A stretch of DNA of 64,000 nucleotides from Candidatus Sulfomarinibacteraceae bacterium (GCA_963796455.1 CAWCLO010000001.1:640001-704000), one strand, 5' to 3'; shown: positions 21,466 to 63,990, numbered from the stretch's first letter. The notes: generated by a model not told the origin, from the sequence alone. Numbers and translations: made by a program.

Positions 21466-22200
21466 GAGATGTTGGATACCGGATGCCGGATGCTGGAACG
21501 AGCAGCGTTTCGGAGAAACCGCAGATCACGCAGATGAACGCAGATCGACCGTCGCTATCGAACGCTGTCTGGGCTAACGATCTCTCAGCAAGGTATGGGA
21601 AACCGCACTGCCCGATCCCGTTCCCGAATTGCAGCGGCAGCGACAGTGTCCAGCGACAGCGACAGCGTCAGGGAGCGGCGACAGCGTCAGCGGCAGCGAA
21701 CAGCGATCAGTGATCAGCGGCGGCGGCCAGGAGTACAGGCGACGAAGTGGCCACCTCCGGGTCGTTCAACGGAAGAAGTAGCCGGTGGGCTGCCGAGTTG
21801 GGAGAGACCGGTCGGCCCACTGGAGGATCGCCTACGCCTCGGCGAAAGAGGTCGATAGCCACTTGCAGCTTCTCGCCCACGCCGGATCGATCAGTCGAGA
21901 TGGAGCCGGTGAAGCGATGAACGCCTTCGATCAGGTCCGTGCCATGATCTGGCGGCTCTTGAACCCTAATGGGTAAGTGCTATTCGCTGACGCTGACCAC
22001 TTTCGCTGGCGCTGGTTTCTGCCGCTGATAGCTGACTACTGTTCCCTGACGCTGTCCGCTGTCGCCGTCCCTGAACGGCGACCGAGAACCTGTCATGGAT
22101 AAGAGTGTTATCCTGCATCCTGCATCCTGCATCCTGCATCCTGCATCGAGCATCTCGCATCGAGTATCGAGTATCGAGTATCGAGTATCTCGCATCGTGA
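21466..22200 (+). mobile_element. Four-helix-bundle repeat element, copy F (5'-truncated gene)
   Basis: GATGCTG-type arm / CATCCTG-CATCGAG arm; CAGCGA arm / TCGCTG arm; 42-bp core 21749-21790; gene remnant in the centre; mobility is inferred. Confidence 0.65.
21800..21976 (+). pseudogene. C-terminal half of a four-helix-bundle gene
   Basis: GRDRSAHWRIAYASAKEVDSHLQLL...WRLLNPNG, 43/58 aa identical (manual count) to the C-terminus of the 61107-61458 product. Confidence 0.85.
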
Positions 22201-22211
22201 ACCCGTCAGGT

Positions 22212-23519
22212 TCACGACTCTTCCGCCCCCATCTGCCGGAAGAGTCTTGCGGTCCAGAGATGAAGCGCCACGGCGAGGGCCAGGATCACCGCCCCGGTTG
22301 CCTGATGGGTTGTGGTGATCGTCACTTCGAGGGCGGTCGGCGAGCCGACAACCGCGTTGCCCTGGGTCACGGCGAGCGCCGCGATCCCAAGGAAGACCTG
22401 CACGGACGCCAGAATCACCAACCCTTTGCCGAAGGCCTCCACCGGCCACGATCCGCCGTACATCCCCCACGCCCGGGCGCCGACCATCACCGCCAACAGG
22501 ACCACCACCGCAGCCAACGAGATGTGGACGATCAGCAGCGCCGCGAGATGCCGTTGAGCTGCTCCCAGCACGAGCTGCAACACCAGGGTCGGAATCAACC
22601 ACCGCTGCAGGGTAAGATCATCGCGAACGTGCGGACGCTGCTCTTGCGCGGGCGCATCAAACCACAGACTGCTGGTCACCACCGCAATGGCCACAATGAC
22701 ACCGAGAAAAATCTGACCGAGCACACCGTGCGCCAGGGCCAGGGCAATGCTCGGCGCCATGTCCTCGGGCGAGGTGCTGAGGGTGAAACCACCGGTGACT
22801 CTCAATCCGCCAAGGATTCCCTGCAGAATCACTAGAACGACGGCTGCTGCCGACAGGCAATGCAACCATCTCCGATCGTCGCGACGCCACAAGCGAATCG
22901 CCAACACGATGGTGGTCAGACCGACCAGCGCACCAAAGAGCCGATGGGCGTGTTCGTAATAAATGCCGCCGGTCATCCGCGACAAAGGATAGAGAAACAT
23001 GTTGTAACCAAACGAGTTCGGCCAATCGACCACGGCCAGACCGGCTTCATTGCTGGTCACAAGACCGCCGGCAACCACCAAAAGAAAGGTTGCGGCAACC
23101 GCGACCTTTGCAAGCAGCGCCGTCCAGGCATTCTCAGGAGACCGCCGCTCCTGGTTTGCACCGACTGCGGCCAGACCACCGGCAATCAGAGCGATCACCA
23201 GCACGGAGCCGGGAATCCACCACAGCGCCGATGGGACCATGGACCCGCTTTCCGTCGAGGCCAGGAGCGAGCCGAGGACCAACATGTTGATCACCGCCGC
23301 CACGGTGCCCACCATGACCCCGGCCAACCAACCACCACCGGACCGCGCACCCGTCAGCCATCCCCAGACGCCCACCATGATCAGCATCAGGGCCAGAAGC
23401 AGCCAACTCGGCGCCATCACCGCCGGCAGGCGGCAAAAATAGGCGACGGCCCACATGGAAACCGTCATCGCGAAGGCGAGGGGGATCACATAACTGCGAT
23501 CGGACGTGGATGTTGTCAT
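22212..23519 (-). CDS. ctaA: Heme A synthase (COX15/CtaA family) with extra N-terminal TM region
   Basis: GLAVVDWP, YEHAHR, QGILGGLRV, HGVLG and two further His in the C-terminal half; divergent from ctaB. Confidence 0.82.
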   Translation of the reverse strand: MTTSTSDRSYVIPLAFAMTVSMWAVAYFCRLPAVMAPSWLLLALMLIMVGVWGWLTGARSGGGWLAGVMVGTVAAVINMLVLGSLLASTESGSMVPSALWWIPGSVLVIALIAGGLAAVGANQERRSPENAWTALLAKVAVAATFLLVVAGGLVTSNEAGLAVVDWPNSFGYNMFLYPLSRMTGGIYYEHAHRLFGALVGLTTIVLAIRLWRRDDRRWLHCLSAAAVVLVILQGILGGLRVTGGFTLSTSPEDMAPSIALALAHGVLGQIFLGVIVAIAVVTSSLWFDAPAQEQRPHVRDDLTLQRWLIPTLVLQLVLGAAQRHLAALLIVHISLAAVVVLLAVMVGARAWGMYGGSWPVEAFGKGLVILASVQVFLGIAALAVTQGNAVVGSPTALEVTITTTHQATGAVILALAVALHLWTARLFRQMGAEES

Positions 23520-23725
23520 CAACGACCTCCTTCAATCCAGTTACTTTTCCGAAGACCTCGAATACGAGCAAGGCATCCTCGGTTATACTGCGCGCGGCGT
23601 CTTCCGAACGCAGGCCGCGCGGCCACAATCGATGAACTCCTGCACTATACACTCGGTATGGTGCATCGCAGGGAAAACGTACCTATGGTAGAGCAGGTCT
23701 CAGTTCGAATAGCGCACACCGATCG

Positions 23726-24700
23726 GTGGAACCGGTGACGGTACGATCGGCGGTCTCGATGTACCTCGAGTTGGCCAAGGCCCGTCTCGGCGCGCTGGTG
23801 GTATTAACGGCGTGTGTCGGCTACGTGCTCGGCGCCCGGGGCGAGATCGATTGGACGGTCGGTCTCGCAGCGGTTGCCGGCACGGCCCTCAGCGCTTTTG
23901 GCGCCAATATTCTCAATCAATGGCGCGAAGCCGATCGCGATGGTCGCATGTTGCGGACCCGCGAGCGGCCGCTCCCTGCGGGCAAAATGCAGAACCGGCA
24001 GGCCGCCATGTGGGGGCTCGCGACCTCCGTTGCCGGTCTCGCGATTCTGGCGATCGGAACCAACTGGTTGACCACCGGTCTTTCGCTCTTCGTCATCGCC
24101 CTCTACGTCCTCGTCTACACGCCGCTCAAGGTCCGAACGCCACTCAATACCGTCGTCGGCGCAATCTGCGGAGCCGTGCCACCGATGATGGGATGGTCGG
24201 CGGCCACGGGTAGCCTCGACGCCGGCGCCTGGATTCTCGGCGGCCTTCTTTTCGTTTGGCAGATCCCGCATTTCCTGGCCCTCGCCTGGCTCTATCGTGA
24301 GGACTATGAACGCGGCGGTTTCCGCATGCTCCCCGCGGTGGACGATGGAGGCCGGATGACCGGTGGTTTTGCGGTGCTCTACGCCGCAGCTCTCCTGCCC
24401 GTCACAGCCTCTCTCAGCGTGGCCGGCATCACCGGTGGCATATTTCTGGTTGCATCTCAAGTTGTTGGATTAGCCTTTCTCGCCCTCGGATGGGTCTTTC
24501 TTCGGGACCGGACACAACAGACCGCCCGCCGTTTGTTTCTGGCCAGCATTCTGTATCTTCCGATCGTTCTGGGGCTGATGGTCGCCGATATGAAATCTCA
24601 CGCAATTCAGCCGCAGCCGAATGCTGAAATCGAGGCTGTCGCACGTCCGGACGCGGCTCAGATCGATATCGCTCCAATCCAGCCTCCATCGGGAATCTAG
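23726..24700 (+). CDS. ctaB: Protoheme IX farnesyltransferase (heme O synthase)
   Basis: DGRMLRTRERPLP, YTPLK, GAVPPMMGW, WQIPHFLALAW..REDY. Confidence 0.95.
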   Translation: MEPVTVRSAVSMYLELAKARLGALVVLTACVGYVLGARGEIDWTVGLAAVAGTALSAFGANILNQWREADRDGRMLRTRERPLPAGKMQNRQAAMWGLATSVAGLAILAIGTNWLTTGLSLFVIALYVLVYTPLKVRTPLNTVVGAICGAVPPMMGWSAATGSLDAGAWILGGLLFVWQIPHFLALAWLYREDYERGGFRMLPAVDDGGRMTGGFAVLYAAALLPVTASLSVAGITGGIFLVASQVVGLAFLALGWVFLRDRTQQTARRLFLASILYLPIVLGLMVADMKSHAIQPQPNAEIEAVARPDAAQIDIAPIQPPSGI

Positions 24701-24704
24701 GCCC

Positions 24705-25790
24705 TTGCAGACACCGGCGATCATCCGCAACGGTTGGTGGGTGGCCCTGATCGGCGTGGCGGTCAGCCTAGCAATCATCATTGCCGCACTGTCATCCACC
24801 CGAACATCCCGCCCGCAAGGAGCAGATACCGGGGAATTCGACCTCGAGAGTGCCAAGGTGCCGCGGCAGCTCATCGTCCGTGCCATGGACCGCGACGGTC
24901 TCAGAGCGTTGACCGATCCTTCGACCCTCGAACCAGCCGATATCGCCCACAAGAACGAAGAGGAACGCGGCAAACTGCTGGTCGGTAGCGACAGGGTCAT
25001 CGGGGTCGAAATCAACGGTGAGGCCCGAGCGTATCCGCTCCGCCTCATGCGTTGGCACGAGGTAGTCAATGACCGCGTGGGCGACCAGGCAATCGCCGTC
25101 ACCTACAGCCCCCTCTGCGACAGCGCGGCCGTCTACTCCCGTCGGATCGATGGGAATGTTGCGGATATCGGTCTTTCAGGCCTTCTTTTTCAGTCGAATC
25201 CCCTGCTCTATGACCGCCGCCTCGGACCCGCCACCTCACCGCTGTGGGTTCAACTCACCGGAAATGTCGTTGCCGGCGCCAGTCCGGATTCAGCCTCCGG
25301 GCTCCTCCCGCTCCCCGCCTCCCTGGTCACCTGGGCCGAATGGCTGAGCCTCCATCCCGGAACCACGATCCTGGCGCCGGAGGAGGATCTGAAAAAGCTC
25401 TACAAACGAGATCCCTACCACTCCTACTTCGGGTCCGACGTGCTCCGCTTTCCGGTCGATCCCATCCCGACCACCCACGAGCTCCGACTCAAGGACCGGG
25501 TGGTGGTGATTACCGTCAATGGCGAGGACTCGGTCTACGGCCTGCCCCAGTTGGCGGCGGCAATCGGAAAGAAGCGAGGGGTCATCGAAATATCGGTAGC
25601 GGATCTGCCCATCCGGCTGAGCTTCGACGCCGAGATCGGTACGGCTTCCGCGGAGGTCCCGAGCGACCCGTCAAGGCTGCAGGGAGTGCGGCTCGCATTT
25701 TGGTTTGCCTGGTATGCCCTGGAAGGAACGATTCCTGCTAATATTCAACCCGCCGTGACGGAGCGGCAACAATCAAAAACCAGAGATTGA
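24705..25790 (+). CDS. DUF3179-like membrane-anchored protein
   Basis: ARAYPL...HEVVND, VTYSPLC, SGLLFQSN.LLYDR, FWFAW; start uncertain. Confidence 0.75.
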   Translation: MQTPAIIRNGWWVALIGVAVSLAIIIAALSSTRTSRPQGADTGEFDLESAKVPRQLIVRAMDRDGLRALTDPSTLEPADIAHKNEEERGKLLVGSDRVIGVEINGEARAYPLRLMRWHEVVNDRVGDQAIAVTYSPLCDSAAVYSRRIDGNVADIGLSGLLFQSNPLLYDRRLGPATSPLWVQLTGNVVAGASPDSASGLLPLPASLVTWAEWLSLHPGTTILAPEEDLKKLYKRDPYHSYFGSDVLRFPVDPIPTTHELRLKDRVVVITVNGEDSVYGLPQLAAAIGKKRGVIEISVADLPIRLSFDAEIGTASAEVPSDPSRLQGVRLAFWFAWYALEGTIPANIQPAVTERQQSKTRD

Positions 25791-25815
25791 CTGAGAAACC
25801 TCCCGGAGGAACTTG

Positions 25816-28113
25816 ATGAACGTCCAGATCGAACAATTCTCCTACGACGACGCCATCGTCCGAAAATTCACTCTGATGACCCTTGTCTGGGGTGTGGTCG
25901 GGATGCTGGTGGGTGTCATCGTCGCACTCCAGTTGGCGGCACCGGTCTTCAACTTCGAATTTTCGCTCATCTCCTTCGGTCGGCTCCGTCCGCTGCACAC
26001 CAATGCGGTGATCTTTGCCTTCGCGGGCAATGCCGTCTTTGCCGGGGTCTACTATTCGATGCAGCGGTTGCTCAAAACACCGATGTTTTCGAAGGCGCTG
26101 AGTGCCGTCCACTTCTGGGGCTGGCAGCTGATCATCGTTGCAGCGGCGGTGACCTTGCCGCTCGGCATCACCCAGGGCAAGGAATACGCCGAACTCCAGT
26201 GGCCGATCGACATCGCCATCGCGGTGGTGTGGTTGACCTTCGCATTCAACGTTTTCGGGACGATCGCCAAACGCCGAGAACGCCACATCTACGTTGCCAT
26301 CTGGTTCTACATCGCCACCGTCGTGACCATCACCCTGCTCCACGTATTCAACAACCTCGTGGTTCCGGCCGGTCTCTGGCGCAGCTATCCGATCTACGCC
26401 GGTGTGCAGGACGCCTTCATGCAGTGGTGGTACGGACACAATGCCGTCGGATTCCTGCTCACCACGCCTTTCCTCGGGATGATGTACTACTTCCTGCCAA
26501 AGGCGGCCAACCGCCCGGTCTTCTCCTACCGTTTGTCGATCATCCATTTCTGGTCGCTGGTCTTTCTCTACATCTGGGCCGGTCCCCACCACCTCCACTA
26601 CACCGCGTTGCCGGCCTGGGCCTCGACACTCGGCATGCTCTTCTCCGTCATGCTGTGGATGCCGTCCTGGGGAGGCATGCTCAACGGTCTGCTGACCCTC
26701 CGAGGCGCTTGGGACAAGGTCGCCTCGGACACGGTCCTGAAGTTCTTCGTGGTGGCCATCACCTTCTATGGCATGTCCACTTTCGAGGGCCCTCTGCTGT
26801 CGGTCAAAATCGTCAATCTGCTTTCCCACTACACCGACTGGACCATCGCCCACGTCCACGCAGGCGCCCTCGGTTGGGTCGGGTTCCTGATCTTCGGGAT
26901 GATCTATTGGTTGCTGCCGAGACTTTTCCAGACCGAGCTGTGGAGCCGCAAACTGGCCGAAATCCACTTCTGGCTCGGCACAATCGGCATCCTGCTCTAT
27001 ATCGTCGCCATCTACGCAGCCGGTTTGACCCAGGGACTGATGTGGCTGGCCTTCGACGACGAGGGCTACCTCAAGTATGGCGATTTCGTGGAAACCACCC
27101 TGCGCCTCATTCCCATGTACTGGGTCCGGGTCATCGGCGGCGTCGCCTATCTCGGCGGCGCGCTCCTGATGGGTGTCAATTTCTTCATGACCTGGCGCAG
27201 TCGTCCCTCCGTCTACGAGGTGCCGGTGCACGAGGCACCCGCCCTGTCCAAAACCTATGTCGATCATCCCGAACCGGAGACCGAGCTCCAGAAAAGCGGC
27301 GCCCACGTCGTCAACGTGGCCTACAAAATCGATCGCTTCTTTTCGACGAGTTGGCACCGCAAGTGGGAGCGGCTGCCGGTCAAATTCACTCTGGCGGTCC
27401 TGATCGCTGTCGTCGTGGCCTCGCTCTTCGAGATCATCCCGACCTTCTTGATCAAATCCAATGTCCCAACCATCGCCACCGTGACGCCTTATACCCCCCT
27501 CGAGCTGGCGGGTCGCGATCTCTACCTCGCGGAGGGCTGTTACAACTGCCATTCGCAGATGATCCGACCGATCCGCGCCGAGACCGAGCGCTACGGCGAA
27601 TACTCCAAACCCGGCGAGTTCGTGTGGGACCACCCCTTCCAATGGGGCTCGCGCCGCATCGGTCCGGATCTCCAGCGCATCGGCGGTAAATACCCGGATC
27701 TGTGGCACGTCCGGCACATGGACGACCCACGCGCGATCACCGCCGGTTCGATCATGCCCGCCTACCCGTGGATGCTGACCAAGGACCTGGATTTCGAGGC
27801 GATTCAAAAAATAGTGCGCGCCCACCAGATCCTCGGCGTGCCCTACGCCGATGAAGAGGTCGCCGGCAGTATCGCGGCAGCGCGGGAACAGGCAGCTGCC
27901 ATCGCCGAAGAAATCGTGGTTCAGGGCGGACCCGACGGGCTCGCCGAAAAACAGATCGTGGCCCTGATCGCCTATCTGCAGCGGATGGGAACCGACATCA
28001 CCAAGCCGGAACCCGTCGCGGTCGAGGAAGAGATGGGGCCTGCCGATCCTCCGGTCGAGGAGGAGGAAGTCGCTGACGCCGAAGCAACCGCGGCTGATGA
28101 GGAGGCTTCATGA
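25816..28113 (+). CDS. ccoNO: cbb3-type cytochrome c oxidase, fused subunits I+II
   Basis: FGRLRPLHTN, QWWYGHN, GPHHLHY, IAHVH, then EGCYNCHSQMIRP and WGSRRIGPDL. Confidence 0.97.
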   Translation: MNVQIEQFSYDDAIVRKFTLMTLVWGVVGMLVGVIVALQLAAPVFNFEFSLISFGRLRPLHTNAVIFAFAGNAVFAGVYYSMQRLLKTPMFSKALSAVHFWGWQLIIVAAAVTLPLGITQGKEYAELQWPIDIAIAVVWLTFAFNVFGTIAKRRERHIYVAIWFYIATVVTITLLHVFNNLVVPAGLWRSYPIYAGVQDAFMQWWYGHNAVGFLLTTPFLGMMYYFLPKAANRPVFSYRLSIIHFWSLVFLYIWAGPHHLHYTALPAWASTLGMLFSVMLWMPSWGGMLNGLLTLRGAWDKVASDTVLKFFVVAITFYGMSTFEGPLLSVKIVNLLSHYTDWTIAHVHAGALGWVGFLIFGMIYWLLPRLFQTELWSRKLAEIHFWLGTIGILLYIVAIYAAGLTQGLMWLAFDDEGYLKYGDFVETTLRLIPMYWVRVIGGVAYLGGALLMGVNFFMTWRSRPSVYEVPVHEAPALSKTYVDHPEPETELQKSGAHVVNVAYKIDRFFSTSWHRKWERLPVKFTLAVLIAVVVASLFEIIPTFLIKSNVPTIATVTPYTPLELAGRDLYLAEGCYNCHSQMIRPIRAETERYGEYSKPGEFVWDHPFQWGSRRIGPDLQRIGGKYPDLWHVRHMDDPRAITAGSIMPAYPWMLTKDLDFEAIQKIVRAHQILGVPYADEEVAGSIAAAREQAAAIAEEIVVQGGPDGLAEKQIVALIAYLQRMGTDITKPEPVAVEEEMGPADPPVEEEEVADAEATAADEEAS

Positions 28114-28319
28114 GTCTGACGGACATCATGTCGGCGGCCGGTCTCTCGTCGTGGACCGAGATCGCGCTGATTCTCTGCTTCATCAGCTTTTCGGCAATCG
28201 TGTTCTGGGTCTTCGTCGTGCGACGCAAACCCTCATATGAGCACCTGCGCCATCTGCCGCTCGAGGACAACGGGAACGGCCCATCGCAACCCGCCGCGAA
28301 TGGAGGCAACTCATCGTGA
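28110..28319 (+). CDS. ccoQ: cbb3 oxidase small subunit
   Basis: Single TM then HLPLED; position between ccoO and ccoP. Confidence 0.8.
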   Translation: MSLTDIMSAAGLSSWTEIALILCFISFSAIVFWVFVVRRKPSYEHLRHLPLEDNGNGPSQPAANGGNSS

Positions 28320-29002
28320 CTGACAAACAACCGGATCAGCAGCCGACCGCCCCGGACTCGGACCACCTCCTGGACCACGCCTATGACGGCATTCAGGAGT
28401 ACGACAACCCACTGCCACGGTGGTGGCTGGCCATCTTCTGGGCAACCATCATCTTCACACCGCTTTATGTTCTCTATTTTCACTTCGGCGCCGGCCTGCT
28501 TGCGGTGGACAGCTACGATCAGGAGATGATCGCGTTTTACGACAAACAGGCGGAACAGCTGTTGGCACTGGGTGAAATCTCCGAGACCATGCTCTCCGAT
28601 CTGACCGTCGACCCGAGCATGATGAACGGCGGCAAAAAGATCTTCCAGGCAAAATGTGCCACCTGCCACGGGATGTTTGGCGAAGGCGGCATCGGACCAA
28701 ATCTGACGGACGAATACTGGCTTCACGGAACGCAGTATCTCGAGGTCTATGCAACCGTCCGCGACGGTGTGACCGCCAAAGGCATGTTGGCGTGGGAGCG
28801 CCAACTTCGACCCGCCGAGCTGATGGCGGTGAGCGCCTATGTGGGAACCCTCCTCGGGTCGGATCCTCCGAACGCCAAAGAAGCTCAGGGAAACCTCGTC
28901 GTCCGGCTGCCCGCGTCCGAGATCGATGCCGGGACCGAAGCCGCAGAAGCTGTTGCTGAAGAAGGGGCTGAAGAGGTCGCATCCGAACCGGCCGCATCCT
29001 GA
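28316..29002 (+). CDS. ccoP: cbb3 oxidase subunit III (monoheme form)
   Basis: DHAYDGIQEYDNPLPRWW, CATCH, GPNLTDEYWLHG, GMLAW. Confidence 0.93.
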   Translation: MTDKQPDQQPTAPDSDHLLDHAYDGIQEYDNPLPRWWLAIFWATIIFTPLYVLYFHFGAGLLAVDSYDQEMIAFYDKQAEQLLALGEISETMLSDLTVDPSMMNGGKKIFQAKCATCHGMFGEGGIGPNLTDEYWLHGTQYLEVYATVRDGVTAKGMLAWERQLRPAELMAVSAYVGTLLGSDPPNAKEAQGNLVVRLPASEIDAGTEAAEAVAEEGAEEVASEPAAS

Positions 29003-29012
29003 GGCAAATTTC

Positions 29013-30910: not shown

Positions 30911-30914
30911 ATTT

Positions 30915-31013
30915 GGAGTTCGGAGTTCGGAGTTCGGAGTTGCCGCACGTGCTTTTGTGTCGTTTCGGGCGGGTGGGCGCCATTCCGAATTCCGAATTCC
31001 GAATTCCGAACTC
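30915..31013. repeat. Inverted heptamer arrays (GGAGTTC)4 / (ATTCCGA)4
   Basis: Direct reading; complementary with G-U pairs on the + strand. Confidence 0.9.
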
Positions 31014-39110: not shown

Positions 39111-39215
39111 TTTGAGAGTTGAGTTTTAAGTTTTGAGTTCGCGCTCAACCATTTTTGCAATCATCCTGGCGGCGCCGACAACTCATAACTCATAACTCAA
39201 AACTCAAAACTTAAT
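39111..39215. repeat. Inverted heptamer arrays (GAGTTTT)n / (AACTCAW)n
   Basis: Direct reading, between ccoI and ccoS. Confidence 0.88.
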
Positions 39216-50870: not shown

Positions 50871-50904
50871 GTGGCTATGGGGCTATGGGGCTATGGGGCT
50901 ATGG
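50871..50904 (+). repeat. (GGGGCTAT)n octamer array
   Basis: One variant plus three exact copies. Confidence 0.9.
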
Positions 50905-51467: not shown

Positions 51468-51896
51468 CAGATGCTAGATGCTAGATGCTGGATACAAGAT
51501 GCTCGATGCTCGATGCTCGATTCACACACCGATCAGAATGAGATTTCTTGGGGTGGGCAACGGATCGAGCGACAGAGCTTTCCAAGTCACGCGTGGCAGC
51601 GTCAGTTTGCAGCGGCAGTGAACAGCAATCAGTATTCAGCGGCAGCGGTCAGGAGTCCAGGCGGCGACGCGGCCACCTCCGGTTCGTTCAAAAAATCAAG
51701 TTGCCAGTGGGCGCTGTCGCTGTCCCTGCCGCTGGACACTGCCGCCGTCGCTGATCACTGACGCTGCCCCTGAATGCTGTCGCTGACTCCTCTTCGCTGC
51801 CCTTGCCGGTGATCTGCATCTATCTGCGTTATCTGCGGTCTGCAGCGTGGGCGGGTGGGCGGAAATTCCTAATTCCTAATTCCTAATTCCGAACTC
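51468..51896. mobile_element. Four-helix-bundle repeat element, copy I (no coding remnant)
   Basis: GATGCT arm, CAGCG arm, CAGGAGTCCAGGCG flank, 42-bp core 51671-51712, CGCTG arm, ATCTGCG and AATTCCT arrays. Confidence 0.6.
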
Positions 51897-51898
51897 AC

Positions 51899-55108: not shown

Positions 55109-56268
55109 ACCGCTCCTCCCGCCTCGGCGTCGGTTTGTCGAACCGTCATGCCATCGGTCACGGCGTCGAGCGAGCTGATCACCACCAGATCGCCCTTCTC
55201 CAGACCCGAAGAAATCAGGGTCTGCTGCCGATCCGCCCGCAGGATCTCCACGTCGCGGATTCTGAGCGCTCCGTCTTCGAAGACCCAGACGCTGTGGCCG
55301 TCACGGATGGCGTGGCGGGGAACGGACACGACTTCGTTCAAAATCCGGCCATTGATTTTGACGTCGACAAAGCTACCGGGCAACAGGGCCGGACGTCCAC
55401 CCGATGTGTCATAGGGTTTCGGAACCTCGACCACCACATGCACCATCCGCGAGGCCTGGTCCACCTGCGCCTCCATACGGGTCACCCGTCCATCCCAAAC
55501 CGACCTGCCGCCCGCGAAGTTCACGCTCACCTCAGCCGGCGAGCCCTGTGTCCTCCCATTCGAAGGCACCGTGAACCACGCCATTTCACGGCTGTCCAGG
55601 GGAACGCGAACGTCAACCACCTGGGTTCCATAAACCGTCGCGAGCCGGCTGCCGTTGCCGACAAACTGGCCGACATCGACGTTTTCAGAAACTACGACCC
55701 CGTCAAAGGGCAGCGTCACTCGGGTTCGCTCGAGGCTGAGTTTCGCACCACTGAGATCCGCTTCGGCGGCGGCCAATTCCGCCTCGGCCTGGCGGATTTG
55801 AGGATCCCTGACGACGAGACCGGTCGGTTCTTCATCGGGATGCAGCTCGTACCACTCCGCCCGCGCCACCTCGGCCTCGGCCTGCTCGCGCTCGAGGGTG
55901 ACCCCGGCGCGGGCGACGGCCGCCTGGGCCCGTTCCACTGCGAGGTCGTAGTCACGCGGATCGATCACGACCAGCACCTCGCCCGCAGAGAAGAAACCAC
56001 CCGCCACCAGCGAGGGGTGAACCTTGACCACCTGGCCCGCCACCTGCGGCACGATATCGACCGAGACCCGGGCCACCACCTCGCCGTGACCGGTCACGAC
56101 GACAGGCACATCCGTGATCTCGGTCGCCATGACCTCGACCAGAGGCCCGAGAGGCGGTCGATCGACACGCGGTGGTGCCTTGCGGGCGGAAGCGAGGAAG
56201 GCAGCAGCAGCGACACCGGCGAGGACAACGATGATGGGGAGAACGAGTTTGAGCGCTTTTGAGGACAT
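55105..56268 (-). CDS. RND periplasmic adaptor
   Basis: PQVAGQV, LERTRVTLPFDG, LLPGSFV. Confidence 0.93.
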   Translation of the reverse strand: MSSKALKLVLPIIVVLAGVAAAAFLASARKAPPRVDRPPLGPLVEVMATEITDVPVVVTGHGEVVARVSVDIVPQVAGQVVKVHPSLVAGGFFSAGEVLVVIDPRDYDLAVERAQAAVARAGVTLEREQAEAEVARAEWYELHPDEEPTGLVVRDPQIRQAEAELAAAEADLSGAKLSLERTRVTLPFDGVVVSENVDVGQFVGNGSRLATVYGTQVVDVRVPLDSREMAWFTVPSNGRTQGSPAEVSVNFAGGRSVWDGRVTRMEAQVDQASRMVHVVVEVPKPYDTSGGRPALLPGSFVDVKINGRILNEVVSVPRHAIRDGHSVWVFEDGALRIRDVEILRADRQQTLISSGLEKGDLVVISSLDAVTDGMTVRQTDAEAGGAV

Positions 56269-57788
56269 CAGGACACCTCTTCGGAATTCGGATTTTGGAT
56301 TTCGGATTTCGGATTTTCACCACGGGCTTGAGACTCCGCAGCAAGAGCAGCAGGAGCTTCGGTTTCGGAGAGGTCGGTGCCCCAGTCGCCGCCAAGGGCC
56401 AGGAAGAGATCGATGCGGGCGTTCCACACATCTGCGGTGCTGGTGATGATGGCCTGTTCGGCCAGACGCAGACGACGCTCGGTTTCGAGCACCCTGAGCA
56501 GGGTCTCAACACCGCGCTGATAGCGCTGTTTCGACAATCGATCGGCTGCGCGCGCCTCCGCCACCCGGATATCCGAAAATTTCTGGTTCTGCAGAGACGA
56601 TTCATTTCGCACCAGGGCATCTTCGACCTCGCGCAAGGCCACCAACACCACTCCGGCGTAGTTCCCGGCGGCTTGATCGGCTCGCGCCCTGGCGGCATCG
56701 ACGTCAGCCCGCCGCTGACCGCCCGTGAAGAGCGGACCGATGAGGTTGGCGATGGCGTTGTAGACGAGGCCATCGGAAATCGTGAGATCGTTGATGGAGT
56801 CCGCCGATGATCCGGCGGATCCGGTCAGGCTGAGGTCGGGATAGAGGTTGGCGATGGCTGCTCCAACCCCAAAAGTTGCGGCCGCCAACTGCATCTCGGT
56901 CTGGCGAAGATCCGGGCGGCGGTCAAGAAGTTGTGCCGGCAACCCGAGCGGAACGGGGTCCAGGGACGGAAGCTGGGGCAAGGTGTCGGGGAGTTCACCA
57001 CCGCTGCCCGGCCGACGGCCAACCAGAACATCAAGCGCCAACCGTGACAGATCGACCTGCCCTGCGATCACCGCCTCGGAGGCGCGCGACGATGCCAGGT
57101 TCTCCCGTGCGAGGTGGAGCTCGACGGCGTCGGCGATCCCGGCGCGATATCTTCTTTCGACGGTGACGAGGGTCGATTCCCAACTGCGGGTGATTTCCTG
57201 ATTGATGCCGAGTGCCCATTCCGCGGTGGCGACGGCGACCCTCGCGCGGACGACCGAAGCCACCACCGAGTGCATCACCGCCTGCTGTGCGGCCTCCTCG
57301 GCCAGCAGACTGGCCCACACCGATTGCTGGGTGCGCTTGAGCCGCCCGAAGAGATCCGCCTGCCAGGCGACATTGACGTTGTACGAGTAGGTTGTCGAGT
57401 TGATCTGCTGGCGGCCGATGTTCGGCAGCACGAAGGACATCTGTTGGGTCGAGGCGGTGGCGCCGTAACCGACCTGCGGCAACCTCGCTCCCCCGGCCCG
57501 TTTCAGATTGGCTTCCGCCTCGATCACCCGGCCGGCGGCAACTTGAAGATTGGGGTTGTTCGCGAGGGCGAGCTCCACCAGCTCGACTGTGGTCTCGTCG
57601 CCAAAGGTGCGCCACCACGGCGATATTTCCGGGGGCTCGCCGGCGTTTTCGTCAGCGGCAAATGTATAGGTGTCGGACACCGCCGCCGCCGTGACCGGCC
57701 GCTCGGGCTCGGGCCCGAGGGTGCATCCGAGGGCGAGGACCACCATGACACCCGCCGCAACCGCTCTCAAAATGAACTGGGAACTCAT
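56268..57788 (-). CDS. Outer membrane efflux lipoprotein (NodT/OprM family)
   Basis: Lipobox ALGC, WWRTFGD, LLDRRPDL, LFLALGGDW. Confidence 0.94.
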   Translation of the reverse strand: MSSQFILRAVAAGVMVVLALGCTLGPEPERPVTAAAVSDTYTFAADENAGEPPEISPWWRTFGDETTVELVELALANNPNLQVAAGRVIEAEANLKRAGGARLPQVGYGATASTQQMSFVLPNIGRQQINSTTYSYNVNVAWQADLFGRLKRTQQSVWASLLAEEAAQQAVMHSVVASVVRARVAVATAEWALGINQEITRSWESTLVTVERRYRAGIADAVELHLARENLASSRASEAVIAGQVDLSRLALDVLVGRRPGSGGELPDTLPQLPSLDPVPLGLPAQLLDRRPDLRQTEMQLAAATFGVGAAIANLYPDLSLTGSAGSSADSINDLTISDGLVYNAIANLIGPLFTGGQRRADVDAARARADQAAGNYAGVVLVALREVEDALVRNESSLQNQKFSDIRVAEARAADRLSKQRYQRGVETLLRVLETERRLRLAEQAIITSTADVWNARIDLFLALGGDWGTDLSETEAPAALAAESQARGENPKSEIQNPNSEEVS

Positions 57789-58492
57789 GAAGTGACCTCC
57801 CGGGTCGTCGCTTCCGAGGATCGTTGGGCGAACGACATCGAACAGGCGCGGATACCGCCCGCCGAAAAGCGAACGAAATGAGGAATGTAACTGCCGAGAT
57901 TTGTCGCCATGACTTCGGATCCTTTGTGTTGGGTGAAAAGATGGTGGGCCTTGAGCGCATGCAGGAGTTGACCGACCAGGGACATGATGCAGAGATGCGC
58001 GTCCTCGGGATCGAGAGGCGGACCGAATTTTTCGAGCGCCATCAGCGACCGCTTCAAAATCGGGCGGACAAATTCGGTGACGAACACGTCGTGTGGCAAG
58101 CGGGCATCGAAGAGCTCCCTCGACACCAGGGCCATGAAGAGCCGGCCCCGACTCTCATCCACCAGTGGGTCGATAAACCCTTCGGCAAAGGACTGGAGGA
58201 ACTCTTCGAGGGTCGGAGCCTCGTCGCGCTCCATCAATTCGCCGAGAACCGACAGACGTTGATCCCTGAGGAAGGTCAGCATCGATCGAAAGGTCTCGAG
58301 GTAGAGCTTGTCCTTGCCGCCGAAGTGATAGTTGACGGAGGCCACATTGCACCCGGCCTCGGAGGTGATATCTCGCACCGACGTCGAGTCGAAACCCTTT
58401 TTGGCAAAGAGCTTCTGCGCCGAGAAGAGGATTCGATCCCGGGTGTCTTCGGCCTCCTGAGTCGCGGTGAATTCATCGGTCTGTACAGCCAT
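57785..58492 (-). CDS. TetR-family regulator (CecR/YbiH-like)
   Basis: LFAKKGFDSTSVRDIT...NVASVNYHFGGKDKLY; SD GGAG. Confidence 0.92.
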   Translation of the reverse strand: MAVQTDEFTATQEAEDTRDRILFSAQKLFAKKGFDSTSVRDITSEAGCNVASVNYHFGGKDKLYLETFRSMLTFLRDQRLSVLGELMERDEAPTLEEFLQSFAEGFIDPLVDESRGRLFMALVSRELFDARLPHDVFVTEFVRPILKRSLMALEKFGPPLDPEDAHLCIMSLVGQLLHALKAHHLFTQHKGSEVMATNLGSYIPHFVRFSAGGIRACSMSFAQRSSEATTREVTS

Positions 58493-58501
58493 GAAAACTC
58501 C

Positions 58502-58550
58502 AAACGCTTGTTTCAAACGTTAATATTAAACAAGTGTTTCAAACCGTCAA
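58502..58550 (-). promoter_or_regulatory. Sigma70-like promoter overlapped by tandem AAAC-N4-GTTT palindromes
   Basis: TTGACG-N16-TAATAT on minus strand; palindromes at 58502-58513 and 58528-58539. Confidence 0.65.
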
Positions 58551-58613
58551 GTTAAGATTCGTCAAGAAGCTAACGAAAAGGAGGGTTGCAGGCTTCCATG
58601 GCGTGGAGGCGAT

Positions 58614-58790
58614 GGAGCTATGGGGCTATGGGCTATGGGCTATGGGCTTTTAGCTGTAGGCTGTTTGAGAGGGAAGGATCGAATCACGTCGAGTACGCCT
58701 CTCCCTTTCTCCCCTCTCTCTTCTCTTCTCCCTTTCTCCCTTTCTCCCCTTCTCCCTTTCTCCCTTTCCCCCATTCTCCCTTTCTCCCCC
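58614..58790 (+). repeat. (GGGCTAT)n array followed by (TTTCTCCC)n array
   Basis: Direct reading. Confidence 0.9.
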
Positions 58791-58852
58791 GCTCCTCTGC
58801 CATTGTTCGGAAACGGGATCGGGATCGGCAGAGGCACCGGTATGATGCCCGA

Positions 58853-60022
58853 ATGCAACACGATCTCTCCTCCCGTCGGTGGTTGATCCTCTTTTCGACC
58901 GTGGTGAGCTTTTTTGCCGTTGGGGTGACCTTCTTCGCCGTGCCACCGCTGGTACCGGAACTGATGACTCGGTTCGGCCTCAGCCACCTCGCGATCGGCA
59001 TCCTGATGGGCGCCATTTCGGTCCCGGCCATCCTGTTTTCCATCCCGTTGGGTTCTGCGATCGACCGCTGGCCGGCCCGGGCGACGGGCAACGTGGCCTT
59101 GCTTCTCATGGCGATCGGCGCCCTGCTTTTTGCCCTCGCTCCGAGCTACGCCCTGCTCTTCATCGGCAGGTTGCTCTTCGGCGTCGGTGGGCTGGCGATC
59201 AACCTGCTCCTGGCACGGTTGGTCTCGACCGCCTTTGCCGGACGAGAGCTTGCTCTGGCAATGGGTGTATTCAACGCCGTGTACCCGGCGAGCATGATCG
59301 TCATGTTCTCGCTCCATCCCAAGCTCCTCGCGACCTTCGGTTGGCGCGGTGAACTGCTGGCACTGGCCGTCATGGTCGTCATCGCCATACCGCTCCACAA
59401 CTTCGCGGTGCCGCATCAACTCCGGGGTGACGCAGCCACCGAGGAGAAAGTCAGCGAACCCTGGATCACCGGTCCCCTGGTGGCATTGGCAGTTTCCTGG
59501 CTGCTGTTCTTCGCCGCCTATGCCTCGATCTTCACCTTTGCCCCCGAGTGGGCAGGCGGAGGAGGCTCGGCCCTCCTAATGGTCAGCCTCATCCCCTGGG
59601 CGGCGATCTTCCTCGCCCCCATCGTCGGCATTTTCATCGATCGCACCGGACACGCAGCACGATGGGTGCTCGGGGGCCAGCTGCTTCTGGGGACCGTGCT
59701 GACGGGCATGGCATTTCGTCTTCTGCCGCCCGCGCCCGCAATGCTGCTGGTTGGGGTCACCTTCGCCACGGTCGCGACGGGAACCTATTCTCTGCCGGCC
59801 TCATTGGTCCGGGCAGCCAGAGTCGGTTTTGCCTTCGGCTTCATCACGGCCTTCTCGAACCTGGGCAATCTGATCGGACCGGCGATCACCGGAGCCATCC
59901 ACGACCGCACCGGGGGCTGGACCCTCGGCTGGACGGTCCTCGCCGGTTGTGCACTTCTGGGCGCGGTGATGTGCGCCTTGATTTCCGTCAGAGAAAATCG
60001 AGCTGCGGAACCTTCGGAATGA
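58853..60022 (+). CDS. MFS transporter
   Basis: About 12 TMs, GSAIDRW, GRLLFGVG, GPAITGAIHDRTG; start MQHDL. Confidence 0.88.
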   Translation: MQHDLSSRRWLILFSTVVSFFAVGVTFFAVPPLVPELMTRFGLSHLAIGILMGAISVPAILFSIPLGSAIDRWPARATGNVALLLMAIGALLFALAPSYALLFIGRLLFGVGGLAINLLLARLVSTAFAGRELALAMGVFNAVYPASMIVMFSLHPKLLATFGWRGELLALAVMVVIAIPLHNFAVPHQLRGDAATEEKVSEPWITGPLVALAVSWLLFFAAYASIFTFAPEWAGGGGSALLMVSLIPWAAIFLAPIVGIFIDRTGHAARWVLGGQLLLGTVLTGMAFRLLPPAPAMLLVGVTFATVATGTYSLPASLVRAARVGFAFGFITAFSNLGNLIGPAITGAIHDRTGGWTLGWTVLAGCALLGAVMCALISVRENRAAEPSE

Positions 60023-60818
60023 GTCGCTCCGAATGGGCCCGCTCGAGGAAAGCCTTGACAGCCGTTCGGCCCCTTTCGCCATAGTCAACCGTCAGCTGGT
60101 TGACGTACATCCCGACGAATCGATCCGCCTTGTCGCGGTCGAGGCCGCGGCCATAGTCGAGGGCGTAGTCGAGAGCCTCTTTACGATGCTCGAGTGAGTA
60201 CTCGATCGACTGTCTGAGGAGCACCGAGACCTTCGCGAGTGTTTCTTCGCCGAGATCGCGTCGGATCACGTTGCCACCGAGGGGCAGCGGCATGCCGTCA
60301 TTCTCCTCGGCCCACCAGACGCCCAGATCGACGATCTTCGAAAAGCCTTCATCCTGCCAGGTCAATTGACCCTCGTGGATCACGACACCCGCGTCAACCT
60401 CGCCCGAGCTCACCGCCGGCATGATCTCGTCGAATCCCATGATCACCGTTTGCAGAGCGGGATTCCACATCTTGAGGGCCAGCGCCGCCGAGGTGAGACG
60501 GCCGGGAATGGCCACCTTCATCGAGGCCAACTGGTCCTTCGTGACATTTTCCCTCGCCACCAGAACCGGTCCGTAACCGTCCCCCATCGAGGCACCCGAG
60601 GCCAACAGGGCATAACGGTCATCGAGGTGGGCATAGGCATGGATCGATACCGCGGTCACCTCGTAGGTGCCCTCGAAGGCCTCGCGGTTGAGGGTCTCGA
60701 TATCGGAAAGTACATGTTCAAATCGAAAATCACCGGTGTCGATGAGTTCTTTGGCAAGCGCGTAGAACATGAATGCGTCGTCGGAGTCGGGCGAGTGTGC
60801 AACACGAATCAGGGTCAT
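59988..60818 (-). CDS. mqnD: 1,4-dihydroxy-6-naphthoate synthase (futalosine menaquinone pathway)
   Basis: HSPDSDDAFMF, DIETLN, GDGYGP, IHEGQL, PLPLGGN, MYVN. Confidence 0.88.
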   Translation of the reverse strand: MTLIRVAHSPDSDDAFMFYALAKELIDTGDFRFEHVLSDIETLNREAFEGTYEVTAVSIHAYAHLDDRYALLASGASMGDGYGPVLVARENVTKDQLASMKVAIPGRLTSAALALKMWNPALQTVIMGFDEIMPAVSSGEVDAGVVIHEGQLTWQDEGFSKIVDLGVWWAEENDGMPLPLGGNVIRRDLGEETLAKVSVLLRQSIEYSLEHRKEALDYALDYGRGLDRDKADRFVGMYVNQLTVDYGERGRTAVKAFLERAHSERLIPKVPQLDFL

Positions 60819-60869
60819 CTATCCTCCGCTTCCCAGAATGGGAGCCCGCATTCTAACCCGAACATTCGA

Positions 60870-61776
60870 CGAACCACAGAAGAACGGCGAAACAGAGACG
60901 ATCCACCCACTCGATACTTGATGCTGGATGCGAGGTGTTGGATCACGCTTGTCCAAGACAGAGTCTCAGACAGCGATCAGGGACGGCGACAGGGATCAGC
61001 CTCAGCGACAGGAAACAGCGATCAGTGTTCAGCGACAGGGAACAGTCGCCAGCGGCAGTGTTCAGTCATCAGCGTCAGCGATCCGCGGCCGGGACAGCGA
61101 CTGAACTCACTTCTTCGGATTCAGTAGCCGCCAGGTCATCGCACGGACTTGATCGAAGACGTTCATCGCGTCACGGGAGGCTGTCGCACCGATCGCCCCG
61201 GCGTGCGCGAGGAGCTGCAAGTGGCTATCGACTTCTTTGGCCGATGCGTAGCCGATTCTCCAGTGGTTCAAACGGTCTCTACCGAATCGGCCGTCCCCTT
61301 CTGCCAGATTCGCAGGGACCGAAAGCCGACCGGATGACCTGATCGGCAATAGGCTTCAGCGGAGCCGGAACCCTCATCACGAGCTTGATCGCGATTCCTG
61401 CCGCTGCGAGGGCATTCGAGTGGGCAACGAGGTTGGTGTTCGGGGCGGCGTTGGACATGGTCACCTCCGGGTCGTTCATGCCCATTCCCACAAGCCGGTG
61501 TGGCCACTTCGTCGCCGGTACTCCTGACCGCTGCCGCTGATCACTGATCGCTGATCGCTGATCGCTGTTGCCTGTCGCTGAACCCTGACGCTGGACACTG
61601 TCGCTGTCCCTGCCTCCTGAACACTGTCGCTGCCAACTGTCGCTGTTTGCTGTCGCTGCCGCTGCAATTCGGGCACGGGCACGAGGCAAACCTCTGAAAC
61701 CCGAATACGACCGGAGACCCGCCTTATGCCAGCGGCACTCGTTACCCTTTCTGTGTCTTTCTGAGTCTCTGCGGTT
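60870..61776 (-). mobile_element. Four-helix-bundle repeat element, copy G (full-length gene)
   Basis: CAGCGA/TCGCTG arms around the gene; boundary motifs shared with copies F and H. Confidence 0.65.
61107..61458 (-). pseudogene. Four-helix-bundle protein (23S-IVP / TIGR02436-like), frameshifted
   Basis: SD GGAGGTGA + ATG; MSNAAP...DQVIRSA in one frame, SVPANLAEG..GR...YASAKE...WRLLNPKK in another; shift at ~61322. Confidence 0.85.
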
Positions 61777-63476
61777 CAGCCGATGTCGCGTCGCGCGACA
61801 AATCGCTCGATCAGATTCCGGGTCGAGGAGTCGTGGTGGCTCAGGTCAGCCTCCTGCCCCGCGACCAATTCGTTTTCTTCTTCGAGGATTGTCCCCGCCA
61901 GGACCTTGCCGAGCTCGACGCCCCACTGGTCAAAGCTGTTGATCCGCCACACCACCCCCTGGACAAAGATCGAGTGCTCATACAGCGCGATCAGCATGCC
62001 CAGCGATCGTGGGGTCAAACGATCGAGCAGGATCGTATTGGTCGGTCGATTGCCGTCGAAGATCTTGTGCGAAGCCAGACGCTTGATCTCGTCGGGCTCC
62101 ATGCCGGAATGCTCGAGCTCCGCCACCACCTCTTCCTCGCTTCGACCCCGCATCAGGGCTTCGGTCTGGGCGAAGAAGTTTGCCATCAGCTTCAGGTGGT
62201 GATCACCAAGCGGATTGTGGGAGTTGACCGAAGCGATGAAATCACAGGGCACCAGTTCGGTCCCCTGGTGGATCAGTTGAAAAAATGCGTGTTGCCCGTT
62301 GGTGCCGGGTTCACCCCACACGACCGGTCCGGTCAGGTAGTCGATCCTGTTGCCGTCCCGGTCGGTGGATTTCCCGTTGGACTCCATGTCGCACTGCTGC
62401 AAAAAAGCCGGGAAACGGCTCAGATACTGATCGTACGGTAGAACCGCCTTGGTCGAGGCGCCAAAAAACGACCGATACCAGATACCCAGCAGCGCAAGGA
62501 TAGTCGGGATATTGCGTTCGGCGGGTGATTCGAGAAAATGGCGATCCATGGCGTGGCCGCCTTCCAGGAGCTCGACGAAACGATCAAAACCGACAGCGAT
62601 GGCCACGGTCAGACCGATGGCGGACCAGCTCGAGTAGCGACCGCCGACCCAGCCCCAAAACTCGAATACGCTGTCGCCGGCAATACCAAAGGACTTGACT
62701 CCTTCATTGTTGGTCGACAAGGCGACAAAATGACGAGCCACCGCTGTTTCGTCGCCGAGCGCCTCCACCAGCCAGAGCCGCGCGGACAGTGCGTTGGTCA
62801 TGGTCTCCTGGGTGGTGAAGGTCTTCGACGCGACCACAAAAAGGGTTGTGGCCGGATCGAGGTCGCGGGTCTTTTCAGAAATATCGGTCGCATCCACATT
62901 CGAGACAAAGCGAATCTCCGGACCGTCGCAATAGGGACCGAGTGCCTCGCAGATCATTGCCGGCCCCAGGTCCGAGCCACCGATCCCGATGTTGACGACC
63001 GTCGTTATGGGTTTGCCCGTGTGACCGAGCCACGCTCCCGACCGAAGCGATTCGGAAAATGCGCGCATCTTCTCGAGCACCCGAGAAATCTGCGGCATGA
63101 CATCTTCGCCGTCCACCACGACGGACTTTCCACCGCGGTTGCGAAGGGCCGTGTGCAACACCGCCCGATCTTCGGTCCAGTTGATCTTCCCGCCCGACAC
63201 CATGGCCTGAGCCGCTTCGGGCACACCACTTTGACGCGAAAGATCGCACAGGAGTCTCAGCGTCTCATCATCGATCCGGTTTTTCGAAAAATCGAAGAAC
63301 AGATCTTCGAGCTCGAGCGAGAAACGCGAGGCACGATCCGGCTCGGTTGCAAAGAGGTCCCGCATGTGGACGCCACCGATCTCGAGGTGGTGCTGGGCGA
63401 GAGCCTTCCACGGCTCGGTTTCGGTCAGTCGTGTGCCGGCACGCACGGCACGGTCAATGGGTGAATCAAATAGCAT
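61776..63476 (-). CDS. pgi: Glucose-6-phosphate isomerase
   Basis: [45 protein letters not shown]. Confidence 0.98.
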
Positions 63477-63524
63477 CGGGTCGAGTCCTCCAGACGACAG
63501 AAAGCATAGCGTCGATTCGGCGGG

Positions 63525-63990
63525 AGGGCTATGGGGCGTGGGGCGTGGGGCTTGATGCTAGATGCACGATGCTGGATCACTCTTGTCCAAGGCAGCGCCT
63601 CGGATAGCGATCAGCAACAGCGACGGCGAACAGTAGCCAGCGGCAGCGAACAGCGGCCGGGGCAGCGACAGCGACAGCCAACTGCACTCACCTCGTCGGG
63701 TTCAACAGACGCCAGGTCACGGCGCGGACCAGATCGGCTGCCCACCGGCTACGCCTTCTGTTGAACGACCCGGAGGTGGCCGTCACTTCACTCGGCCGCT
63801 GCCACTGTTAGCTGTTCGTCTGTCGCTGGATTCTGTCGCTGGATTCTGTCGCTGACCTCTGTCGCTGACCTCTGTCGCTGCCGCTGCCGCTGCCGCTGGA
63901 CACTGTCGCTGTCGCTGCAATTCGGGCACGGACACGGGAAGGGAGAAAGAGGGAGAAAGGGGGAGGGGAAAGGGAGAACCGTACCGAAAG
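63525..63990 (-). mobile_element. Four-helix-bundle repeat element, copy H (last 15 codons only)
   Basis: Remnant DLVRAVTWRLLNPTR* at 63688-63735, core 63740-63781, 13-mer tandem 63820-63880, shared boundary motifs. Confidence 0.65.

Follow-up and report, generated by a model that had tools for sequence, protein, structure and literature searches.

The described systems closest to the element family reported here are the mobile insertion cassettes (MICs), exemplified by the pair MIC231/IS231, and the miniature transposable elements with inverted repeats (MITEs). The family was encountered in a window, by which we mean the whole 64,000-nucleotide stretch analysed (GCA_963796455.1 CAWCLO010000001.1:640001-704000; C1:640001-704000 below), from a Candidatus Sulfomarinibacteraceae bacterium, a lineage that we take to belong to the Acidobacteriota; its assembly, G000, comprises 5.0 Mb in 10 contigs (C1-C10) and is 90.5% complete. 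Four intergenic copies in the window, named E, F, G and H, derive from a cassette built around a gene for a four-helix-bundle protein, and very probably this cassette is a non-autonomous derivative of the IS4 family of insertion sequences (IS), i.e. a MIC or MITE, which an IS4 transposase acting in trans brought into the target ATSCWGSAT and which was then eroded and mixed. Like the MICs and MITEs as defined in PMC3129680, it has terminal inverted repeats (TIRs) of IS type, a target duplication of fixed length, passenger DNA, no transposase of its own and a cognate IS elsewhere. It departs from them in that the passenger is a hairpin-plus-gene unit of intervening-sequence (IVS) type with microsatellite arms, present at about 190-220 loci per genome; in that the preferred target is a heptamer array and the cargo appears to be under purifying selection across copies; and in that the cognate transposase was not found in the same, 90.5%-complete genome and was found in one of 24 relatives.

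The passenger has its own parallels. The S23p-bearing IVS of 23S rRNA genes in Coxiella burnetii and Leptospira, described with their excision by RNase III in PMC4990558, share with it the PF05635/TIGR02436 family, complementary flanks and short tandem repeats upstream of the gene, whereas the cassette is intergenic, lies outside rRNA in either orientation and is bounded by IS4 TIRs. Genes for intervening-sequence proteins (IVP) are also described in rRNA insertions of the candidate phyla radiation (10.1101/2024.02.27.582315), and homology between PF05635 and Avd, of the diversity-generating retroelements (DGRs), is stated in PMC10053308; the cassette protein has the four-helix-bundle fold of Avd at about 10% identity, but here no reverse transcriptase (RT) was found and the variation is not adenine-specific. 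With the repetitive extragenic palindromes (REP), their REPIN derivatives and REP-associated tyrosine transposases (RAYT; PMC2817692) the family shares palindromic intergenic repeats, and a 61-copy miniature form carries a RAYT-flanking REP hairpin, yet ends and duplication are here of IS4 type and REP is cargo. Intergenic heptamers are discussed in PMC4679880, the accessible part of which does not mention this cassette family, and a literature search lacking most subscription journals and supplements returned no published description of an IS4-ended four-helix-bundle cassette.

Terminal repeats, target duplication and the IS4-type carrier

Identity among three full copies at unlinked loci is 98-99% over ~865 bp, from TIR to TIR, and two gene-less copies with different duplications are 98-99% identical over ~434 bp; such near-identity between differently duplicated copies is an indirect sign of mobilisation. 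Recent duplicates, among them the copies at C7:250697, C4:42244, C3:36275, C5:63916 and C8:36527, agree as far as an inverted repeat of 18 bp (left CACTGCTGTCCAAAACAG, right CACTCTTGTCCAAGACAG). An earlier interpretation of the window, made from its sequence alone (the sequence-only reading), had placed the ends in fold-back microsatellites; the actual ends are these TIRs with a 9-bp duplication, shared with IS of the IS4 family. A TIR search of G000 gave 255 ends forming 74 pairs, and duplication lengths of 2-13 tested on these pairs peak at 9 (21 perfect, 38 with at most one mismatch), with no signal at 3-8 or 10-13 and a secondary one at length 2, from the AT ends of the target. Among the 71 pairs under 1.1 kb, 21 have perfect 9-bp duplications, against a mean of 2.1 and a maximum of 8 in orientation-normalised shuffles (7.8 and 17 when one mismatch is allowed); in the same-genus relative G006 the figure is 20/41 pairs versus 3.5 in shuffles. 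Since eleven matching duplications fall outside the heptamer consensus, e.g. TCTTTGCGT/TCTTTGCGT, the duplication length is fixed at 9.

The target consensus ATSCWGSAT is palindromic, and because (GATGCTG)n offers it in every repeat, GATGCTG arrays are favoured landing sites. The outer heptamers, previously counted as part of the element, flank complete copies in the same direction on both sides and are thus the insertion target and not termini. A TIR is touched by 35/83 GATGCTG-type arrays, and 23/74 insertions have no array on either side. Among the relatives, array-pattern hits number 151 in G015, 39 in G022, 15 in G018, 14 in G002 and 11 in G004, all five without a TIR match, and G021 has 71 TIR hits but one array hit. 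The notion that the arrays are excision footprints, in which the 9-bp duplication collapses on its terminal AT to a period of 7, was rejected, as arrays and TIRs occur uncoupled.

Comparisons beyond G000 covered 24 same-genus genomes and 16 others of the order, each labelled with a G number. The TIR pattern is present in 10/24 same-genus genomes (zero hits for the reversed control), enclosing the four-helix-bundle cassette in G006 and gene-free REP-like doublets in G008, G012, G020, G021 and G024. In a wider scan of species-representative genomes, with 123 TIR loci (80 with full flanks), ten loci are 1.3-1.5-kb elements with the same TIRs and a single ~400-aa transposase; their 9-bp duplication is perfect in six, has one mismatch in one and is absent in three. 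Four of these transposases carry DUF4372 and DDE_Tnp_1, both proteins tested pass NCBIfam transpos_IS4_1 (NF033592; 268 and 251 bits, cut-off 115), and the Y(2)R(3)E(6)K motif can be read in the transposase sequences. An intact IS4-type element with the same TIRs occurs within the genus, in G017, its transposase gene being at L197:1489-2694. The parent element agrees with the IS4 family of PMC2266710 in its CA.. ends, its single ~400-aa DDE protein with the YREK motif and its 9-bp duplication, which is within the range tabulated there (IS4Sa 8-10, IS10 9, IS50 8-9); the cassette itself differs in lacking the transposase. Other cargo is also found between these TIRs, namely a GTCATCCTGAGCG-type palindrome in G000 (C4:114700-115252, C5:1335-2018), and at the fetched loci L113, L121 and L172, in unrelated organisms, the IS4 TIRs bound gene-less miniatures of 250-290 bp whose 9-bp duplications are perfect. 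The TIR word has 12 hits in viral contigs, all chance matches with no partner end.

As a mover resident in G000, its only DDE_Tnp_1 gene (C7:291107) was rejected, as it is not flanked by these TIRs; the contig end at C7:290000-293858, where it lies, also holds an adjoining, apparently frameshifted gene that we presume from its motifs to be IS110-like. Self-BLAST of G000 showed no multicopy IS with these ends. An RT as mover was likewise rejected, RVT_1 (PF00078) having no match in G000 or G004.

Genome-wide copies, window relics and gene-less forms

A consensus-core search of G000 returned 187 loci (65 full-coverage, 44 partial and 78 gene-less), bearing out the dispersed mobile family that the sequence-only reading had proposed from four loci. 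Merged with the terminal repeats, they amount to 224 loci in 5.0 Mb, and four copies in 42 kb are thus of ordinary density. PF05635 has 76 matches in G000, 67 of them above cut-off, and tblastn with the copy G protein (frameshift as X) recovers 59 full-length genes, 58 with the full 117-aa frame. A complete copy of ~860 bp consists of left TIR, ~90-bp spacer, CAGCGA arm, ~135-nt hairpin leader, gene, TCGCTG arm and right TIR; neither transposase nor RT lies inside it, as had been seen at the outset. No copy is autonomous, and the former division into an autonomous element and non-autonomous derivatives falls: copy G is itself frameshifted, leader-deleted and one-ended. By purpose-made gene calls (3916 genes), the orientation of full copies relative to the upstream gene is random (36/65, p=0.46), no sense bias relative to neighbouring genes was seen, and convergent gaps are over-represented (26/65 full copies vs 17%). 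REP elements, too, are enriched between convergent genes. In some copies the cargo is inverted with respect to the ends, or the two ends are alike (C10:353281, C1:390883, C7:133820), which points to recombination between arms or between copies; tandem or adjacent elements one or two heptamer units apart (C2:76354, C3:330051, C1:10444, C7:212114) are insertions into target sequence next to a copy already there.

Alignment with a copy intact from TIR to TIR shows those in the window to be mostly one-ended relics of this family, the end products of insertion followed by erosion. Their positions stand as originally given, with pairwise E-values as low as 1e-54, and so does the deletion series of their centres: full gene (G), C-terminal half (F), last 15 codons (H) and nothing (E). 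Only the right TIR remains in F, G and H, in which it had already been noticed as a degenerate CAC(T/G)CTT-type motif; E is without a clear TIR at either side, and no window copy has a recognisable left TIR, the match in E being only 60%. The second boundary motif reported for F, G and H, CCCGAATTGCAGCG, is indeed common to them, at 21623 (+), 61673 (-) and 63926 (-), and this 14-mer occurs 75 times in the genome, far above chance. The neighbours of the window loci are an acyltransferase gene, yraN, an RND permease gene, pgi, a CtaA-family gene and a menaquinone-biosynthesis MqnD-type gene.

Copy F (21609..22107, + strand) retains the inner left end, the CAGCGA arm, the 5' half of the leader (21725..21796, +), joined through a GGCCGA microhomology to codon ~57, the C-terminal half of the gene (21797..21976, +; codons ~57-117), the TCGCTG arm and a right TIR of the IS4-type B form (22090..22107, -). 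Its junction class is common to 9 loci; a 6-bp microhomology junction could recur, so that these half-gene copies may stem from a single deletion or from several. The folding energy of F lies ~4 SD below that of shuffled sequences. A heptamer array with an ATSCWGSAT-like 9-mer in each register touches its TIR (22110..22197, +) and is the insertion target; the GATGCTG-type run found upstream (21474..21497, +) is separate from the element and is probably an arm of an older repeat palindrome.

Copy G lies on the opposite strand. Its gene (61107..61458, -; TIGR02436/PF05635) is whole except for a 2-bp loss near 61325, i.e. the single frameshift recognised beforehand, and 43/58 residues of its protein are identical to the piece in F, also as first counted. 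It is followed by a TCGCTG-type arm (60969..61083, -), the type B right TIR (60944..60961, +) and the remaining half of the 9-bp target, GTGTTGGAT (60935..60943), a 7/9 match to ATGCTGGAT. Upstream are a leader remnant (61459..61542, -), short by ~89 nt through a deletion at 61503/61504, and the CAGCGA arm with the CCCGAATTG motif and CCCGTG hexamers (61524..61686, -), beyond which the left TIR is gone. The C-terminal piece of the G protein passes TIGR02436 (29.7 bits, cut-off 24), as does the C-terminal part of F, and at 28.4 bits falls below the PF05635 cut-off of 33.8. Copy H (63606..63943, -) comprises an arm, the last 15 codons plus stop (63688-63735), half the leader (63736-63781), the other arm and CCCGAATTG at 63926; its left TIR is gone, and its type B right TIR (63578..63595, +) touches a perfect target 9-mer, ATGCTGGAT (63569..63577). 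Copy E (51578..51785, +) holds the arms and the 5' leader half (51637-51713, 82% identical) with no gene, and a GATGCT heptamer array (51469..51521, +) lies upstream.

Partial copies throughout the genome are joined at short microhomologies. One foreign centre, a hairpin found beside two Y1_Tnp (RAYT-type) genes as well, is common to 61/78 gene-less loci, and this shared junction makes independent recurrence unlikely. Duplications within one mismatch are present in 14/22 TIR-complete gene-less copies; thus the gene-less form has multiplied with its own duplications, the protein is not needed in cis for IS4-type transposition, and 'autonomous versus non-autonomous' is the wrong split. The REP sequence sits at the centre of this form and the ends are IS4 TIRs, not the REP palindromes of the resident RAYT that a REPIN would have. 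Apart from these, in the G006 loci L036, L037 and L038 the leader centre is swapped for an unrelated ~140-bp sequence with the gene intact, and G000 holds a multicopy nested palindrome of ~600-1000 bp with up to 18 partners (C1:2036-2763, C1:620254-621148, C4:284929-285953 and others), in which CACAGAG, CGCAGAT and CGCAAAG arms surround a REP doublet with no obvious gene.

Most orthologous sites in the relatives are empty, as had been anticipated for a mobile family. Among relatives with conserved neighbours the cassette is absent from 12/13 at the G site, 15/16 at the F site and 9/9 at the E site, and at the H site 14/16 of the relatives examined have no leader, TIR or gene. The nested repeat palindromes that fill the orthologous gaps differ from species to species, from which independent hits on hot spots seem likely.

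The cargo unit and its protein

Matches to the inner unit of CAGCGA arm, leader, gene and TCGCTG arm occur in 17/24 genus relatives and in 3/16 further genomes of the order. G004 has 38 of them and G040 has 43, and G004 has no match to the IS4-type TIR of the window family. In a sample of 20 copies fetched from nine relatives, 1-4 per relative being checked for termini, six (in G014, G017 and G020) are bounded by another TIR, CGGCTCATCCGGAA. They have what looks like a duplication of 6 bp, in many cases AACGTT, and lie next to AACGTT arrays; the remaining ones, including those sampled from G004, G003, G016, G018, G021 and G040, have no shared termini. We infer that the unit is older than its IS4 carrier and was captured by it. 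The second miniature element, with CGGCTCATCCGGAA ends, is seen at L061, L062, L064, L068, L069, L071 and L409, and exact matches to its TIR occur in 12/24 relatives; its parent transposase was not found among the scanned loci, 15 of which gave a paired end, and AACGTT arrays also occur with no exact match to this TIR. A gene tree was built from copy G, 22 of the 58 intact G000 copies, chosen at random, and 18 copies of relatives. It unites the copies of G000 and G006 in a single supported clade; this conflicts with pgi, which groups G006 with G003, and suggests transfer.

In G000, four unrelated genes for four-helix-bundle proteins, and likewise three GxxExxY genes, are each enclosed by complementary 6- to 9-mer arms of their own, and the arm words of these seven genes recur as gene-less arrays in the window, which suggests one repeat word per cassette family. 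The GxxExxY genes (C1:453966, C1:750137, C1:748395) have complementary 8- to 9-mer arms of their own, and the third is split over two frames. Further intergenic 6- to 9-mer arrays in the window lie at 4598-4781, 5246-5271, 8385-8425, 10706-10859, 12414-12597, 30915-31010, 39180-39211, 50873-50904, 51812-51890, 56280-56316 and 58608-58788; several of their words serve at other places in G000 as the arms of further four-helix-bundle or GxxExxY genes. The complementary arms emphasised in the sequence-only reading hold as a family trait (score 48.5 vs 15.8 shuffled), but the arms of a copy pair no better with each other than with those of other copies (48.5 vs 49.2, p=0.68), and copy-specific co-evolution of the arms was rejected.

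The leader of ~135 nt folds as a long hairpin, and the ribosome-binding site is covered by its basal stem. In a comparison of 18 copies, taken from nine genomes, 14/40 pairs covary, with 39 two-sided vs 4 one-sided changes; 0/500 shuffles reach the observed value and slid controls score far lower. Few changes involve G-U pairs, and in several relatives the apex carries GNA triloops on one strand or the other, a loop type that is stable in DNA; both features hint at a DNA rather than an RNA hairpin. A second ATG, in frame and upstream within the basal stem, would lengthen the protein to 124 aa, and as it is the only start in three G040 copies, the start codon is uncertain. Rfam and PADLOC gave no match in the window. 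No family locus falls within rRNA genes, which were placed crudely by primer words near C10:143600-145100, the nearest locus (C10:147300) being outside.

The attribution of the gene to the four-helix-bundle family is upheld, an intact copy scoring 59.3 bits with TIGR02436 (cut-off 24) and 57.7 bits with PF05635 (cut-off 33.8). Its structure model has four helices (pLDDT 93.9), the fold of 2GSC and 2RLD, and fold comparison places Xcc0516 and BT_0352 best (TM 0.79-0.83 to 2GSC) with Avd next (4DWL, TM 0.79, E 0.037), so that the suggested relationship to Avd stands at the level of the fold. To our knowledge no catalytic function has been described for the family. For Xcc0516 a homopentamer, and for S23p a pentamer structure, are described in PMC4990558. 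Over the 58 full-frame copies, to which the count is restricted, dN is 0.057, dS 0.360 and dN/dS 0.158, with pN/pS of 0.15 for shared variants and 0.54 for singletons; in G006 dN/dS is 0.23 and 0.29 (34 intact copies). These substitution patterns indicate purifying selection on the cargo protein across copies. Nucleotide diversity (pi) is 0.033 at paired leader sites, as against 0.252 for four-fold sites and 0.241 for the left-end spacer; carrier and gene have thus diverged equally deep while amino acids and stems were held. Linkage, however, decays within 30-60 nt, so tracts are exchanged and selection may be inherited from donors, and in gene-less copies the captured REP hairpin (pi 0.049) equals the leader in conservation, so that hairpin conservation need not reflect the protein. 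Variable sites (A 44/83, C 74/113, G 54/104, T 24/54) fall mostly at third codon positions, and DGR-type adenine mutagenesis was rejected for want of an adenine bias.

Competing explanations and the meaning of the family

The very probable explanation is thus a cassette mobilised in trans. A transposase of the DUF4372 + DDE type would bind the 18-bp TIRs and cut the palindromic 9-bp target, the unit entering in either orientation with duplication of 9 bp; GATGCTG arrays, often in gaps between convergent genes, would be favoured as landing sites. The route would presumably be cut-and-paste, as in IS10 and IS50. Copies would then shed pieces by microhomology deletion and swap short tracts by recombination, some derivatives with both TIRs, chiefly the gene-less form with the RAYT-type REP hairpin centre, multiplying again, and the arms, leader and gene would be an older unit captured by the carrier. 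The TIRs, the 9-bp duplication, the target consensus, the end identity with intact IS4 elements, the duplication of full and gene-less forms and the empty orthologous sites are shown by the sequence and argue for this scheme. Several observations weigh against it. The cognate transposase was not found in the 90.5%-complete G000 (tblastn empty, DUF4372 0 matches) nor in 23/24 relatives, including the TIR-rich G006 and G021, from which the mover would be lost, transient or unassembled, and the G017 element has no matching duplication. The flanks differ by more than one mismatch in 33/71 pairs, and just 33/65 full-coverage copies have two TIRs, 18 having only the downstream one, like F, G and H, 7 only the upstream one and 7 none; one-ended copies could also be explained by gene conversion into resident repeats. 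Some sites are occupied in relatives: G004 has a 63%-identical gene at the G site and a fragment at the H site, G017 a leader remnant with the second TIR at the H site, and G018 a 65%-identical gene in opposite orientation at the F site, and, the pgi tree having little resolution, shared ancestry may account for these cassettes. Conspecific data (4 DNA runs, C7:236000-255999) showed no polymorphic empty site, but the contigs are short and shallow, with ~24 letters on either side of a joint, and this fragmentary result weighs neither way.

That the four-helix-bundle protein itself moves an autonomous element with fold-back microsatellite ends is very improbable: complementary arms, the stable folding of F, the 58 full-frame genes under apparent purifying selection and the lack of an internal transposase would suit it, but homology of recent duplicates ends at the TIRs and not at the microsatellites, the 9-bp duplications and the identity with IS4 ends are left unaccounted for, in other species these TIRs carry cargo that has no gene, and heptamer arrays abound in genomes with no TIR match, such as G015. 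Still less credence can be given to a retroelement satellite or DGR accessory in which the Avd-like protein works with an RT, since the fold match and the stated PF05635-Avd homology are set against the absence of RVT_1 matches in G000 and G004, the unbiased variation, the random orientation and a fixed duplication with TIRs. A host-selected regulatory or RNA-processing module, with arms and leader as RNase III substrates or terminators, is improbable; the gene family and stem-bounded layout recall the Coxiella IVS (PMC4990558), a stem covers the ribosome-binding site and convergent gaps are over-represented, yet there is no sense bias, gene-less or broken loci form the majority, there is no conservation of sites between species, few stem changes are G-U, Rfam has no match in the window and no family locus lies inside the located rRNA genes. 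Another explanation concerns the cargo and is compatible with mobilisation by an IS4 transposase: the protein would bind the folded single-stranded DNA (ssDNA) leader and promote its copying or recombination into repeat-rich sites, capture by IS4 being secondary. This is possible, though we lean the other way. The wide distribution of the cassette with high copy numbers in G004 and G040, the TIR-free G004 and the sampled copies with no shared termini, the low dN/dS in G000 and G006, the conserved and covarying leader, the rapid linkage decay and the arm-bounded layout of unrelated four-helix-bundle and GxxExxY genes speak for it; the multiplication of gene-less forms, the equal conservation of the captured REP hairpin, the lack of copy-specific arm pairing, selection that may have come from donors by recombination or transfer, a family with no catalytic function known to us and a termini sample of 1-4 copies per relative speak against it.

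For the protein within the IS4-mobilised cassette, a passenger dispensable for transposition, with a selected activity on its own hairpin, comes close to an even chance; inert cargo with inherited selection is possible but rather disfavoured, and a benefit to the host is unlikely. Of the first two, the selected activity is judged to be slightly the likelier. A more far-reaching and doubtful proposal is that the arms-leader-gene unit is a selfish module, whose Avd-like protein recognises its own ssDNA hairpin and favours copies keeping both, and which is repeatedly captured by unrelated miniature transposons that target the repeat arms of other modules, giving nested layers at intergenic hot spots. 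Two carriers have been seen so far, the IS4-type one with a 9-bp and the second with a 6-bp duplication. If true, this would account for a 'passenger' being kept under purifying selection in dozens of dispersed copies.

The mode of movement is thus ordinary, and what is still unusual is an apparently selected, repeatedly captured hairpin-plus-Avd-like module. The family offers a testable handle on the abundant S23p/IVP (Avd-like) proteins, with a named transposase, defined ends and a defined target, and supplies 58 natural protein variants under apparent selection together with a covarying leader as candidate ligand. It also distinguishes heptamer arrays that are cassette arms from those that are landing sites. 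Finally, this free-standing relative supports an older idea, taken up in PMC4990558, that transposition can be a means of travel for units of IVS type.

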